NCBI GenBank assembly: GCA_033763315.1
Contig: JANRKS010000016.1
Location: forward strand, 160,001 to 224,000
Length of the DNA stretch: 64,000 nt
Source of the DNA: Deltaproteobacteria bacterium
GTDB taxonomy: Bacteria; Myxococcota_A; Polyangia; Fen-1088
Direction of reading: 5' to 3'
The position numbers and the translations under genes are program-made. Below, in pieces: positions 42,522 through 47,045 of this stretch (position 1 is its first letter; each line of letters starts with the position of its first letter). The notes beneath the pieces were generated by a model, which was not told where the DNA came from, searched no databases, and worked only from the letters and a program-made list of their open reading frames with translations.

Positions 42522-43069
42522 GGGCGACAGTAACCGATGGTGGCGTAGCCTTGCAGTGGCACGCACGCGTTCACGCCGCCACACAAGAAGCCTTGCTGGC
42601 AGATGCTCACGCACACGGGAACCTCTTTGCCGCAGATGGAGCCGGCCGTGCAATCTGAATCGTTGTTGCAAAGCACGCCAGGCACAGCGTCTCCTTCGAT
42701 CGCACACTTGGAGCCGCCCTTGCCAAACGGATAACACCCTTGCGCCTTGGCTTGGTTGTTGGGGCAGTTCTGCGTAAGCAGGCTGCATAATTCCGGATCG
42801 CCTGTGCCGGCTTCGCCGAGCGCGTCGGTGGCGCTGCCGGTATCAACCTTGCCATCCAACTTCACGGCGGCGTCAAGGCTCGCATTGGTGTCCTTCCGCA
42901 CCGGCGCGTCGTAGCCCGCACCCAGCCCGCCATCGCTGCTAACGATCGGCCGATCGCTGCCACCCGCGGCACCTGTACCGCCAATCCCTGGCTCCACGGG
43001 CGCTTGGCTCGATGAGCAAGCCACCACGAACGTCACTGCCACCACGAGAAGATTCAGATGCCACCGCAC
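42518..43069 (-). CDS. Cys-rich lipoprotein (12-Cys C-terminal domain)
   Basis: Lipobox VVAC; DAG-type linker; CSLLTQNC...CNNDSDCTAGSIC...GYC. Confidence 0.7.
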   Translation of the reverse strand: MRWHLNLLVVAVTFVVACSSSQAPVEPGIGGTGAAGGSDRPIVSSDGGLGAGYDAPVRKDTNASLDAAVKLDGKVDTGSATDALGEAGTGDPELCSLLTQNCPNNQAKAQGCYPFGKGGSKCAIEGDAVPGVLCNNDSDCTAGSICGKEVPVCVSICQQGFLCGGVNACVPLQGYATIGYCRP

Positions 43070-43116
43070 GATGGTTCCAGTTTATGCCAAACCCACGCGG
43101 CTGGCCTGCACTAGTT

Positions 43117-43800
43117 CTAGTTCAAGGCGGCGCCGGGCCGCATTCGCGCCAGCAAGCTGGCCACCTCGCGGGACAGCCGATCCATGCGCAGCCACGGATT
43201 CAAGGTCTCAAGCAGCGCTTGGCGCGCGAAGCCATCTGTGACCAAAACCGAAGCCAACCGGTCAGTGAGTCGCGCCACCGACACGGGCTCTCGCACCGCT
43301 TTGCGCAAAGCCAAGGCGTCGTCATCCTCCAGCCGCAAAGCGACTTCTTCGATCAACGCGCGCAAGGCGGCTTCCGAGGATTCTTTGCGCGCCGGTGACG
43401 CGTCATCGCCAGGGTCATCGACCAGCTGTTCAACGCTGACGCTGCGGTAAGGCTTGCCCGTGTGTAACTCGCGCCCGACGCGGCCGCGCGCGCGACCTTC
43501 AAGCAAGATGTTGAACCGCCCTTCAGCCAGCGCTTCGGACGCCACGATCTCGCCAATGCCCACGATTTGTGCGATCGCCGGTGGCGGCCCACCAGGCACT
43601 TCATCTTCTTTTCGATACGCCATGGCAAGCAAACGATCGCCAGCCATCACGTCGCGGATCATCTCCTTGTAGCGCGGCTCGAAGATGTGGAGCGGCAACA
43701 TGGCGCCAGGAAACAAGACCATGTTGGGCAGCGGAAACACCGGCAAAGACGCCAAGGCGTCAGGTGCGAGTTTCGTTTGGCTATCGTCATCCGAAGACAT
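43117..43800 (-). CDS. Stand-alone Lon protease N-terminal (substrate-binding) domain protein
   Basis: LPVFPLPNMVLFPGAMLPLHIFEPRY, GRFNILLEG, RQALLE; no AAA or protease domain. Confidence 0.9.
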   Translation of the reverse strand: MSSDDDSQTKLAPDALASLPVFPLPNMVLFPGAMLPLHIFEPRYKEMIRDVMAGDRLLAMAYRKEDEVPGGPPPAIAQIVGIGEIVASEALAEGRFNILLEGRARGRVGRELHTGKPYRSVSVEQLVDDPGDDASPARKESSEAALRALIEEVALRLEDDDALALRKAVREPVSVARLTDRLASVLVTDGFARQALLETLNPWLRMDRLSREVASLLARMRPGAALN

Positions 43801-44500
43801 CGACGCACGACCCTGACAAAGCCGCCGGCGCCGACGAGGCGAGGTAGAGCACAACGTTCGCGATGTCAGCGGGCGACATATTTGGCGTGCCACCCGGCAT
43901 GCCGATTTGAAGCATCTCCGTGTCTACGGATCCCGGGCACACCGCGTTCACTTTGATGTCTGTGCCACGCAGCTCTTCGGCAAGCGCGCGCGTGAAGCCC
44001 ACAACCGCGTGCTTAGCCGTGCAATAGGAAACCAATTGTGCCGTGCCTTGCCGCCCCGCGATCGAAGAAAGGTTGATGATGCGCCCTGTGCCGCGCATTT
44101 TCATCGCGCGCAAAAACGCGCGGGTCATATAAAACACGCCCGACACATTCACATCCAGCATGCGCTGCCAGGTGGCGTCGTCCAGATCTTCAAGCGCGCC
44201 GCGCACCACGATGCCTGCGTTGTTCACCAACACGTCAGGCACACCGAACGATGTCACCAGTTGCCTCGCGAATCTTTCCACGTCTTCGCTGTCGGCCACA
44301 TCGCAACGGACAAAACGGCATCGCACACGCAGCGCTTCCGGCAAATCATCTAAGAAGGTGTGCGTGGACGCTTGCAGGCCACAGCCCACAACACGAGCGC
44401 CGTGTGTGGCAAGCAACGCCGCCGTGGCGCGACCGATGCCACGCGAAGCGCCCGTGACCACCACAACCTTGTCTTGCAGCACAGGTGCGGTCATCGTCAC
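43787..44500 (-). CDS. Short-chain dehydrogenase/reductase
   Basis: TGASRGIG, NNAG, SS, YCTAK, CPGSVDT. Confidence 0.92.
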   Translation of the reverse strand: MTMTAPVLQDKVVVVTGASRGIGRATAALLATHGARVVGCGLQASTHTFLDDLPEALRVRCRFVRCDVADSEDVERFARQLVTSFGVPDVLVNNAGIVVRGALEDLDDATWQRMLDVNVSGVFYMTRAFLRAMKMRGTGRIINLSSIAGRQGTAQLVSYCTAKHAVVGFTRALAEELRGTDIKVNAVCPGSVDTEMLQIGMPGGTPNMSPADIANVVLYLASSAPAALSGSCVDVFG

Positions 44501-45075
44501 CGGCTCCCCAAGTTGGCTGCCGCCAGCAAACGTGCTTTGAGATCGGGGCGTTGTTGCATCTGCCCCACAAACGCGCTGGTCACCACGCCTGATTGATCAT
44601 GCCGCTCGCCAGGCAAGGCCAAACACATCTGTTCCGCTTCGATCACGCAACCCGCGCCCGCGGCACCCAGGCCTTCCATCAATGACTGAGCGATCTGGTG
44701 CGTGGCGCGCTCTTGCAACGTCAGCCGCTTCGTAAAGCACTCGACCAGATCGGCAAGACGTCCAAAACCAATCAGCTTGCCGTTGGGAATGTAAGCCACG
44801 TGTGCCACGCCTCGGTAAGGCACCAAGTGATGCGGGCACATCGAGTGAAAGCGCAAACCGCCCACCACCACCACGTCGGGATCGGCTTCACCCAATACGG
44901 GGGAGCCCAAGATCTCCTGCGGGTTCATCGCATAACCAGCAAGGAATTCCTTCATCCACAAGCTGGTCACACGCGCGGCCGTTCCGGTGAGATCGCCGTC
45001 GCGATCGGGATCTAAGCCACACGCGCGGAGCCAAGCCGCCACCGCCACCGCCATATCCGCTTCATTCGCTGCCAC
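44497..45075 (-). CDS. GTP cyclohydrolase I (FolE)-like T-fold protein, atypical active site
   Basis: SMCPHHLVPYRG-AHVAYIP, RLTLQERAT, EAEQMC; several canonical residues substituted; start approximate. Confidence 0.85.
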   Translation of the reverse strand: MAANEADMAVAVAAWLRACGLDPDRDGDLTGTAARVTSLWMKEFLAGYAMNPQEILGSPVLGEADPDVVVVGGLRFHSMCPHHLVPYRGVAHVAYIPNGKLIGFGRLADLVECFTKRLTLQERATHQIAQSLMEGLGAAGAGCVIEAEQMCLALPGERHDQSGVVTSAFVGQMQQRPDLKARLLAAANLGSR

Positions 45076-45112
45076 GTGCTGCGTGCCTTCCTTCGAAGGG
45101 CTGATGCCCAAA

Positions 45113-45559
45113 CTAATCGAGCGCCGGCGTGTCCAGCGGCACCAAGCTATCAAGCGGGCGGCGACCGCCATAGCCCGTGTCCACGGGGTGCCAATGGCCG
45201 AGCTGCTTTTCGCCTAAACGCCAACACAAGTAGATGTCGTCCGTCCCGCGGCGGGCAGGAAAATCAACCAAGCCCGTTTCGAGATCTTTCACTTCGCCGC
45301 CGAGATCAGCAACTTGCCCTAAGGATTCGATGAGCATTTCATAGAACGCGCGAAACATGGCTTTGGCGCTCTTAATGGCAGGCGAGCCCGTTTCATCTTC
45401 ACCGGCCAAGATCTCTTTGCTTGGCTTGACGCCCAGGCGCGTGAGGTTCTCTTCTTCTCGGCGCAAAGACGCGTGGATTTGCAACACATCTGTGAAGATG
45501 CGTTCCAACTTAGGGATAAGGCGATTCACCTCACCTATGGTGAAAACCCGACGGGGCAT
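45113..45559 (-). CDS. DUF2203 family protein
   Basis: FTIGEVNRLIP, GGEVKDLETGLVDFP, YLCWRLGE, WH...GYGGRRPL. Confidence 0.88.
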   Translation of the reverse strand: MPRRVFTIGEVNRLIPKLERIFTDVLQIHASLRREEENLTRLGVKPSKEILAGEDETGSPAIKSAKAMFRAFYEMLIESLGQVADLGGEVKDLETGLVDFPARRGTDDIYLCWRLGEKQLGHWHPVDTGYGGRRPLDSLVPLDTPALD

Positions 45560-45588
45560 GGGGTAGGCTTATACCAAAGAAAGGCGCC

Positions 45589-46380
45589 ATGCCATCTGAA
45601 CCCAACAAACGTGACAAAACGAAAGCGCAGCCCAAAAGGGCCTTGACTGGCAAAACAGTTTTGGTCACAGGCGCAGCCGTGCGCGTAGGTCAGGCGATCG
45701 CTTTGTGCCTGGGCGAAGCGGGCGCGCGCGTGGCGGTGCACCACCACCAGTCGCACAAACCGGCCGCAAAATTCGTTGAAAAGCTGCAGTCTAAAGGCAT
45801 CGAGTCAGCCGCATTCGCTGCGGATCTAAGCGATGCCAAAGCCCCTGCAAACCTGGTGTCGCGCGTGCGGGCTTGGTCGGGGCAATTGGATGTTCTGGTT
45901 AACAGCGCAGCAATTTTTGGTAAGCAAGCGTTCGAGAAAGTTGAGCGATCCACGCTTGATCAGTTGTGGGCACTGAACTTCCGCGCACCCTATCTGTTAG
46001 CGCAGGCGGCCTTGCCTATGCTTAAACGCAGCGGCGGTTCGATCATCAACATCCTTGATGTTGCAGCCTTTTCCGCGTGGAACGGCTACAGCGCCTACTG
46101 CCCCACCAAGGCAGCGCTGGCGATGTTGACCCGCAACTTGGCCGTGGAACTGGCCCCCGAAGTCCGGGTCAATGCTGTGGCCCCCGGCGCGGTGATGTTT
46201 CCGAAGGATTACGATGAAAGCGCTCGCCAGCGGGTGGTTGAAAAGATACCGCTCGCACGTGAGGGCTCGCCGTTGGATGTGGCCAAGGCGGTGCTTTATT
46301 TGGCCACCGCCAGATATGTCACAGGTGCCGTGATTCCGGTTGATGGGGGGCGTTTGGCCGGCCAGCGCGGCCTGCTCTAG
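45589..46380 (+). CDS. Pteridine reductase (FolM/PTR1)-like SDR
   Basis: TGAAVRVG with the PTR-type Arg, VHHHQS, NSAAIF, INILD, YCPTK, LAPEVRVNAVAPG. Confidence 0.8.
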   Translation: MPSEPNKRDKTKAQPKRALTGKTVLVTGAAVRVGQAIALCLGEAGARVAVHHHQSHKPAAKFVEKLQSKGIESAAFAADLSDAKAPANLVSRVRAWSGQLDVLVNSAAIFGKQAFEKVERSTLDQLWALNFRAPYLLAQAALPMLKRSGGSIINILDVAAFSAWNGYSAYCPTKAALAMLTRNLAVELAPEVRVNAVAPGAVMFPKDYDESARQRVVEKIPLAREGSPLDVAKAVLYLATARYVTGAVIPVDGGRLAGQRGLL

Positions 46381-46431
46381 CCCGGGCGTCGTGGTCGGCG
46401 CGGCCGCACGCGTGTGCTACTTTGCAGCGCT

Positions 46432-47040
46432 ATGTCCGTTGATATCTCGTCGCTGACGTCTGTGGTTTTGCGGTTCGCCCACATTTCGTTCGGCATTTTG
46501 TGGCTGGGGACGCTCTATTTCTTCGCACTCGTAAACGCTCCGTTTCAAAAGGAGCTGGACGATGTGACAAAAGCCAAGGTCAACCCGGCCTTGCTTCTGC
46601 GCGGCTTGTATTGGGCCAAGCGGGCATCGCTTTACACGATGATCTTCGGGTGGGCGCTGTTTGGGCACAAGTACGGCAGCCAGGGTTTGCTGCGCGAAGG
46701 CGCCGGCCTTTCAAACCGCGCCGTGTGGATCTTGGCAGGGGGCATCTTGGCCACAGTGATGTGGTTCAACGTTTGGTTCTTGCTGTACCCACGTTATCGA
46801 GCTGTGCTCATGGGTTTGGCGAAAGGACAACCGCCTGCCGACGCCGTTGCGTTGTTGGCTTCAGCCAGCCAAGTGTCGAGCTTCAATTTTTACGCGTCTG
46901 GTCCCTTGTTGTTCGCCATGATTGTGCCCAACAATTTCCCAGGTCTATCGCCTGTGGCCATGGTGGCGGCGGTGGTCATCGGCTGCGGCTTCTGGTTCGG
47001 CCTCGGCAAGCGCGCGTTTAAGTTCAAACCATTGGCGTAA
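46432..47040 (+). CDS. Urate oxidase N-terminal (PuuD-like) membrane protein, no cytochrome c domain
   Basis: RFAHISFGILWLGTLYFF, VMWFNVWF; several TM helices. Confidence 0.65.
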   Translation: MSVDISSLTSVVLRFAHISFGILWLGTLYFFALVNAPFQKELDDVTKAKVNPALLLRGLYWAKRASLYTMIFGWALFGHKYGSQGLLREGAGLSNRAVWILAGGILATVMWFNVWFLLYPRYRAVLMGLAKGQPPADAVALLASASQVSSFNFYASGPLLFAMIVPNNFPGLSPVAMVAAVVIGCGFWFGLGKRAFKFKPLA

Positions 47041-47045
47041 CGTTC

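Follow-up and report, generated by a model that had tools for sequence, protein, structure and literature searches.

The 64,000-nucleotide window analysed here (contig JANRKS010000016.1 of assembly GCA_033763315.1, positions 160,001 to 224,000 of the forward strand, from a Deltaproteobacteria bacterium of the Polyangia) carries a FolE-family gene at 44497..45075 on the minus strand, termed FolEv in this text, which would encode a remodelled form of GTP cyclohydrolase I. All coordinates are window positions, and FolEv residues are counted from the GTG codon; residue n of FolEv corresponds to n+30 in Escherichia coli FolE, and the E. coli number is that of the Thermus thermophilus enzyme plus 2. 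The longest open reading frame, 44497-45171 on the minus strand, is intact and would give 224 amino acids from an ATG. Translation most likely begins with the GTG at 45075 rather than with this upstream ATG, because the shorter form gives 192 amino acids, is preceded at 10 nt by GAAGGAAGG, and fits the N-termini and lengths of the homologues, which mostly count 192-198 amino acids. The gene, its start signal and the active-site segments are located as follows.

44497..45075, minus strand: FolEv, FolE-family gene (PF01227), 192 amino acids from GTG 45075, stop TGA at 44499-44497
45086..45094, minus strand: Shine-Dalgarno-like GAAGGAAGG, read from the sequence, 10 nt before the GTG start
44827..44838, minus strand: Zn loop C80-P81-H82-H83 (canonical CEHH), from the alignment to 1wm9, 1is7 and 1fb1
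44749..44763, minus strand: G105-R106-L-A-D109 (canonical S135-K136-x-x-R139), from alignment and conservation
44710..44715, minus strand: guanine-recognition pair Q121-E122, retained, from alignment and present in 121/121 sequences
44599..44631, minus strand: remodelled loop Q149-M-C151-L-A-L-P155-G-E157-R158-H159 (canonical H179-x-C181-x-x-x-R185), from alignment and conservation

By sequence and by predicted fold, FolEv is a T-fold FolE domain. The Pfam family PF01227 (GTP_cyclohydroI) is matched with an E-value of 7.4e-48 over profile positions 3-176 of 179, and is the only Pfam family found in the protein at E up to 0.01; PF02649, the FolE2 family, is not matched, and QueF models are absent among the Pfam and NCBIfam matches. 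Two NCBIfam subfamily models for FolE accept the protein, NF006825 with 182.9 bits (cut-off 174) and NF006826 with 168.6 bits (cut-off 162), and automatic annotation names the homologues 'GTP cyclohydrolase I' in their source records. The AlphaFold2 model, a monomer built from a 114-row alignment, has a predicted local distance difference test score (pLDDT) of 94.9 and a predicted template modelling score of 0.90; apart from the C-terminal tail, the lowest pLDDT is that of block 151-160 (mean 82), the loop bearing the changed Arg185 position. The top Foldseek matches of this model are the GTP cyclohydrolases I of Listeria, human, rat, Thermus and M. tuberculosis, with template modelling scores of 0.86-0.90, and the ten best rows superpose with root-mean-square deviations of 1.6-1.9 Å across 178-187 alignment columns. 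In GTP cyclohydrolase IA generally, three subunits of a homodecamer contribute to each active site.

Residues were assigned from HMMER alignments to the solved enzymes of T. thermophilus (1wm9), rat (1is7) and human (1fb1). In the Thermus enzyme, as set out in passages of PMC4005822, Zn is bound by C108, H111 and C179, Glu150 contacts N1/N2 of the guanine and Ser133 the ribose hydroxyl, His177 (E. coli His179) protonates N7, His110 protonates the ribose ring oxygen, and the phosphates are bound by Lys134, Arg137, Arg183 and Arg64. The three Zn ligands align with C80, H83 and C151 of FolEv, the catalytic His112 of E. coli with H82, and the guanine-binding Gln151-Glu152 with Q121-E122; H82, Q121 and E122 occur in 121/121 of the close homologues described below. 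Along the sequence, the canonical CEHH becomes C80-P81-H82-H83, G-L-S-K-x-x-R becomes G103-F-G105-R106-L-A-D109, Q-E is kept as Q121-E122, and H-x-C-x-x-x-R-G becomes Q149-M-C151-L-A-L-P155-G; in E. coli numbering, the substitutions are E111P, S135G, K136R, R139D, H179Q and R185P. The first-pass annotation had listed the same residues by eye, together with the retention of the Zn and guanine-recognition sites, and the alignments bear it out on both points, C80, H83, C151 and Q121-E122 being invariant in the 121 sequences. Its claim that the triphosphate binders are lost goes too far: two of the four phosphate-binding basic residues are indeed gone (R139, now D109, and R185, now P155), but K136 is replaced conservatively by R106 and the fourth, Arg65, is kept as R35. 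The catalytic His179 is Gln149, and the ribose-contacting Ser135 is Gly105.

These replacements are not peculiar to one genome. A word-indexed search with FolEv returned 3549 proteins at E up to 1e-10, and conservation was read from the query plus the best 120 of them, which are 72-99% identical to it and of which the few with source names are Polyangia or Myxococcales metagenome bins. P81, G105, Q121-E122, C151, P155 and a basic residue at 158 (R or K) are each present in 121/121 sequences, R106 and an acidic residue at 109 in 120/121 (D in 96, E in 24), and position 149, the E. coli 179, is Q in 119 and H in 2. Judged against 70 canonical representatives, three further basic residues are fixed specifically in the FolEv clade, R75 (120/120 homologues), R88 (118/120) and H159 (120/120), as are two acidic residues near the lost arginines, E157 (113/120) and D160 (115/120). 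As read from these alignments, the substitutions are conserved under selection, in a pattern far beyond chance. Unconserved decay, which the first-pass annotation had named as an outcome that would undo its proposal, was looked at and rejected, the variant residues being kept in 119-121 of the 121 sequences and the frame being intact.

The position of FolEv in the wider family was examined by running HMMER exhaustively over representatives at 50% identity. Of the 8855 matches obtained at E up to 0.001, the 150 best were aligned; these are the nearest to the query and not a random sample. Among these, the 87 representatives with Glu111 keep S135 in 83, K136 in 82, R139 in 84, H179 in 85 and R185 in all 87. 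The 52 representatives with Pro111 have Q (26), H (14) or P (6) at position 179, R (27) or P (13) at position 185, and R (21), A (10), Q (5) or K (5) at position 136. Since the PROSITE signature of the family reads C-[EP]-H-H at this site, a Pro111 form is not in itself without precedent. Within the Polyangia, intermediate forms were found: CPHH enzymes with S-K-R, His179 and Arg185, present as sole copies (L136-L140, L142); enzymes with S-K-R, Gln179 and Arg185 (L131, L132); and enzymes with G-R-D/E and Pro185 that keep His179 (L125-L127, L129). Because the first of these sole-copy enzymes are CPHH forms that retain all the other residues, E111P alone cannot, on this comparison, be disabling, and is compatible with an otherwise canonical site; by the same alignments, the FolEv clade is the most altered branch in a graded series of forms. 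On a quick FastTree of 182 rows (180 scored; midpoint-rooted for display only), Pro155 and His159 require 2 state changes each and mark a single clade, that of FolEv, the P155/H159 signature being present in 25/180 scored rows, and the loss of His179 requires 16 state changes. The correlated changes Pro155/acidic 109 and Pro155/His159 amount to just 1-2 independent pairs on this tree, hence the comparison has no power.

The source genome (7.63 Mb in 40 contigs) contains a single PF01227 match, FolEv itself, and FolE2 was not found in its 90.85% complete assembly; the search for another folE or folE2 that the first-pass annotation had proposed thus returned none. The genes for enzymes that would use the product are present, namely FolB, HPPK (FolK), QueC and one PTPS/QueD homologue, with FolP in its usual ftsH-folP-glmM setting. 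RibA is present twice, and a creatininase-family (BrbF-type) formamidase was not found in this genome. GTP cyclohydrolase II is matched by the normal RibA-type gene on contig C7 (214 bits) and, more weakly, at 161571-162044 of contig C6 (101 bits; L146 of genome G000), within an open frame of 409 amino acids.

The same gene complement recurs in related genomes. In a sample of 61 Polyangia genomes of the same family, PF01227 is matched in 60, of which 59 have one match, scoring 88-171 bits, and G041 is the only genome with an extra copy at canonical level (224.6 bits); FolE2 occurs in 2/61 and HPPK in 60/61. In the class sample of 151 genomes, PF01227 is matched in 126, 34 with a canonical-level match (at least 221 bits) and 92 with only matches of at most 183 bits. 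FolE2 occurs in 26 of the 151, and since it is present in 18 of the 25 genomes without PF01227 but in only 8 of the 126 with it, FolE-type and FolE2 genes replace each other across the class, with no sign of a third, unknown enzyme. The two are nearly mutually exclusive at the family level (FolE-type against FolE2: 0/11 against 11/11 genomes in family f13, 17/17 against 0/17 in f1), FolE2 standing in for FolE-type genes in the Polyangia families that do not have them. Seven class genomes have neither; of the six with quality figures, five are 67-84% complete and one, of 2.3 Mb, is 97% complete. In the 35 sampled genomes with a FolE-type gene at least 55% identical to FolEv, FolEv is alone in 26, accompanied by a canonical-level copy in 6 and by a second copy at 155-172 bits in 3, and FolE2 was found in 0/35.

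This distribution decides the fate of one option raised by the first-pass annotation, that of an inactive or regulatory subunit modulating a canonical FolE. The loss of catalytic and binding residues is the sole point in its favour; no canonical FolE is there to be regulated in 59 of the 61 family genomes, and the strict conservation of the Zn ligands, His82 and Q121-E122 would be unexpected in a catalytically dead scaffold, so that on gene distribution the option is rejected, its probability being close to nil.

Since FolEv is the sole FolE-type gene in its family while the enzymes that consume the product are kept, it is probably still a working GTP cyclohydrolase I. The reading favoured here, with confidence somewhat above even, is that FolEv would be the housekeeping GTP cyclohydrolase I of its lineage, with a remodelled phosphate pocket and a chemistry independent of His179, set in a pterin module with two short-chain dehydrogenase/reductase (SDR) genes. 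The earlier conclusion that FolEv is not a normal GTP cyclohydrolase I therefore holds in one respect, the substitutions being real, conserved, at positions with published roles, and accompanied by a score below the TIGR00063 cut-off; its implication of a non-working enzyme is unsupported, FolEv being the sole FolE/FolE2-type gene beside FolB, FolK, FolP, QueC and PTPS, with the same situation in 59/61 genomes. Under the favoured reading, FolEv would act on GTP, probably as Mg-GTP, to yield formate and 7,8-dihydroneopterin triphosphate, from which folate, queuosine and a reduced pterin cofactor would be made. The imidazole ring would still be opened by a Zn-bound water, with His82, and Gln149 would serve only as a hydrogen-bond partner of N7, not as a proton donor; the proton transfers made by His179 in E. 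coli may have been taken over by His82, by the Zn-water system or by another residue. The triphosphate would be held by R35, R106 and R158/H159, perhaps with the clade-specific R75 and R88, and a Mg2+ bridge may link it to D109, E157 and D160, the acidic residues gained in this pocket.

Several observations weigh against this reading. FolEv fails the cut-offs of the NCBIfam FolE equivalog models, TIGR00063 (131.2 bits against 181.6) and NF006824 (88.3 against 202). Of the four basic residues that bind phosphate, two are lost, as is the serine that contacts the ribose, and three acidic residues are newly fixed in the pocket. The relaxed constraint on the canonical residues in the Pro111 lineage is, as far as the alignments tell, also what a change of function would produce. 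Where both forms occur in one genome, the canonical copy can adjoin folate genes, FolB in one locus (L014) and HPPK in another (L015), and this suggests a division of labour between the canonical copy and FolEv. The assembly of the source genome is only 91% complete. Mutants of E. coli FolE at H179, in work by Bracher and colleagues from 1999, reportedly halt at the formamidopyrimidine intermediate. According to PMC4005822, replacement of His179 abolishes the activity of E. coli FolE; such mutants resemble FolEv in having a residue other than His at 179 in an otherwise intact Zn site, but they are laboratory mutants, whereas the Gln of FolEv occurs in nature, is fixed, and comes together with many further changes. 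As for the canonical copies themselves, the genes around those of L015 (genome G090) and L017 (genome G106) have a third-position GC of 0.54-0.64, compared with 0.77-0.98 at the other canonical-copy loci examined, and these copies may represent a horizontal acquisition or a contaminating contig.

The fate of position 179 bears on a second explanation, that FolEv, lacking His179, only opens the ring, like GTP cyclohydrolase III, and that its product, the 2-amino-5-formylamino-6-ribosylamino-pyrimidinone nucleotide, is left to another enzyme for deformylation. The Gln in 119 of 121 sequences and the behaviour of the E. coli mutants are in agreement with it, and two-enzyme schemes of this kind exist, through ArfA plus ArfB among archaea and, among bacteria, through the formamidase BrbF (PMC9478397). 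The source genome, in which no BrbF-type gene was found, has RibA twice, so that riboflavin synthesis needs no such enzyme; no hydrolase gene conserved beside FolEv was found either, and a related clade of the f11 type with the same Pro185 pocket keeps His179. Moreover, nothing would supply pterin to the pathways of folate and queuosine, and ring opening alone is accordingly regarded as highly improbable.

A change of nucleotide is an explanation suggested by the phosphate pocket. FolEv would then still open the ring, remove the formyl group, carry out the Amadori rearrangement and finish with ring closure, but its substrate would have fewer phosphates than GTP or another group at the 5' position (GMP, GDP, guanosine), giving dihydroneopterin mono- or diphosphate directly, a shorter route to folate. 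The loss of R139 and R185, together with the gain of D/E109, E157 and D160, fixed in 113-120 of 120 homologues, points in this direction, the guanine and Zn sites being intact, and the FolB and HPPK that are present need only dephosphorylated dihydroneopterin. PTPS/QueD-type enzymes, however, use the triphosphate form by eliminating the triphosphate, and QueC and the single PTPS/QueD homologue thus imply a need for that form; R35, R106 and R158 also remain, and a Mg2+-bridged GTP would account for the acidic residues equally well. The explanation is therefore judged unlikely. Both this and the ring-opening explanation are less likely than the housekeeping role because the downstream pathways need the dihydroneopterin product and no BrbF-type formamidase was found. 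In a bolder form, which the alignments would allow as a conceivable but doubtful proposal, the Myxococcota Pro111 lineage as a whole might be a mechanistically different cyclohydrolase, working without His179 or the Arg139/Arg185 clamp on a metal-bridged or shortened phosphate substrate (Mg-GTP on the acidic residues, or GDP/GMP), with a product or substrate range unlike that of any characterised FolE.

The genes around FolEv form a head-to-tail run of four on the minus strand, in the order DUF2203, FolEv, SDR and Lon N-terminal-domain gene, with a further SDR gene diverging from it.

45113..45559, minus strand: DUF2203 gene (PF09969 at 7e-29), 37 nt upstream of FolEv and co-directional
43787..44500, minus strand: classical SDR, SDR_A (PF00106 at 6.5e-60), its start overlapping the FolEv stop
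43117..43893, minus strand: stand-alone Lon N-terminal (substrate-binding) domain gene (PF02190 at 1.3e-33), last in the run
45589..46380, plus strand: pteridine-reductase-like SDR, divergent (best NCBIfam model NF006598)

Among related loci with a FolEv homologue of at least 54% identity and with room on the side in question, an SDR gene lies directly downstream in 48/54 and a DUF2203 gene directly upstream in 29/55, and the Lon N-domain gene follows the SDR in many of them; the divergent SDR arrangement recurs in L036, L071 and L087-L091. The DUF2203 protein has no relative in the PDB by sequence. The matches of SDR_A in PDB and NCBIfam are generic and FabG-like, sepiapterin reductase being absent from its best 60 PDB matches and best 25 NCBIfam models. 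The divergent SDR scores 258 bits with NF006598, 'pteridine reductase', below the cut-off of 288, and matches the structures of trypanosomatid PTR1 and FolM at 1e-27 to 1e-28, among generic FabG matches at 1e-35. No RNA family, and so no tetrahydrofolate or preQ1 riboswitch, was returned when 43000-47000 was scanned against Rfam with E up to 1.

FolE genes are found with SDR-type pterin reductases elsewhere, in folM-folE-folX operons (PMC9758184) and in the GTP cyclohydrolase I, PTPS and sepiapterin reductase route to tetrahydrobiopterin (PMC5041015), and, given such clusters, the neighbourhood would point to a pterin product and not to a ring-opened pyrimidine. If FolEv is co-transcribed with the DUF2203, SDR and Lon N-domain genes, and faces a pteridine-reductase-like SDR, the locus would be a pterin-supply module, comparable to the folM-folE-folX operons or to the pairs of GTP cyclohydrolase I and reductase of tetrahydrobiopterin synthesis. 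The likeness lies in the combination of a FolE gene with SDR genes; it differs from both in that FolX is missing, that PTPS lies elsewhere in the genome, and that the putatively co-transcribed SDR does not specifically resemble sepiapterin reductase or FolM.

The PTPS/QueD homologue, the only one of the source genome, is located outside the window, on contig C32 (L035:1483-2013), where it is flanked by genes of a 2-oxoglutarate-Fe(II) oxygenase and of a fatty-acid-hydroxylase-family protein, with an AraC regulator adjacent (L035:473-2911). Alkylglycerol monooxygenase is presumably a member of that hydroxylase family. The animal enzyme is cited as tetrahydrobiopterin-dependent in the title of a reference listed in PMC9131029. 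If the family relationship holds, these genes may form a module for lipid oxygenation that depends on pterin supplied by FolEv. Beyond the divergent SDR, 46414-48224 on the plus strand encodes a membrane protein of 208 amino acids that partially matches Urate_ox_N (3.7e-14), directly followed by a class I/II aminotransferase, a pair that also lies near the FolEv homologue in L038, L039, L043, L045, L048 and L066; a deoxyhypusine-synthase-like gene (PF01916, 1.5e-37) occupies 48221-49249 on the minus strand, and its 82%-identity homologues lie near FolEv in L037, L053 and L083.

Relatives with 42-51% identity to FolEv occur in cultured Myxococcia, in Archangium, Myxococcus, Pyxidicoccus, Corallococcus, Hyalangium and Citreicoccus. 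These CPHH enzymes share with FolEv P111, G135, R136 and Q179 (20/23 loci) and the loss of R139 (A or S instead), but differ from it in the retention of Arg185 in 22/23 loci and in the absence of the P-x-x-[KR]-H loop; in their neighbourhoods, an SDR gene is downstream in just 6/22, and a FAD-linked oxidase is usually found instead. Three genomes were looked at, the complete ones of Archangium minus Cbm 6 and Myxococcaceae GXIMD 01537 and that of Myxococcus sp. RHSTA-1-4. In all three this relative, with P111, G135, R136, A/S139, Q179 and R185, is the single PF01227 gene and HPPK is present, and FolE2 was not found in any of them. Myxobacteria are regarded as folate prototrophs, and Myxococcus xanthus grows on folate-free defined medium. 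In a locus of Archangium minus Cbm 6 (L106, 2696-8000), the FolE-like gene is followed by a GlcD-like FAD-linked oxidase and then by a sigma-70 factor, an order typical of the Myxococcia, and some 2.4 kb upstream there is a gene for the zinc-uptake protein ZnuA.

These cultured genomes, which carry the related form only, bear on a further explanation, in which FolEv would be a specialised paralogue for a secondary pterin or another guanine-derived metabolite, and folate would be obtained by uptake or through an unrecognised enzyme. The conserved pairing with an SDR gene in most of the related loci points that way, as do the second FolE copy beside FolEv in 9/35 genomes (canonical-level in 6), the proximity of that canonical copy to FolB or HPPK, and the relaxed constraint in the Pro111 lineage. 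HPPK is nevertheless kept in 60 of the 61 family genomes, though 59 of them have only this FolE, and the class-wide distributions of FolE-type genes and FolE2 complement each other; together with the Myxococcia genomes, these data make such a paralogue distinctly improbable.

Compared with canonical FolE (E. coli, T. thermophilus 1WM9/1WUR, human GCH1 1FB1), the proposed housekeeping enzyme belongs to the same Pfam family and fold, with 33-38% identity, has the Zn ligands, His112, Gln151-Glu152 and Arg65 in common, and occupies the same metabolic place, as the sole candidate in its genome for the step with which folate and queuosine synthesis begin; it differs in E111P, S135G, K136R, R139D/E, H179Q and R185P and in the fixed R75, R88, E157, H159 and D160. 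The alternative openers of the guanine ring, FolE2 (GTP cyclohydrolase IB) and GTP cyclohydrolase III with the ArfB or BrbF formamidase, have no sequence relation to FolEv. In the full-text literature, with subscription-only papers outside its scope, no published account was found of a FolE without His179, Arg139 and Arg185, or of any myxobacterial FolE.

The active site of FolE is treated as invariant in studies of its mechanism, in annotation rules and in inhibitor design. The FolEv lineage is natural and strongly conserved, and does without the histidine essential in E. coli, half of the phosphate clamp and the ribose-binding serine; nonetheless, the synthesis of folate, queuosine and pterins appears to depend on it alone. 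FolEv offers, in this respect, a test made by nature of which residues are really required for the FolE reaction. Whole clades of Myxococcota would depend on a central enzyme in an uncharacterised form, and the automatic 'FolE' names in these clades are unverified.

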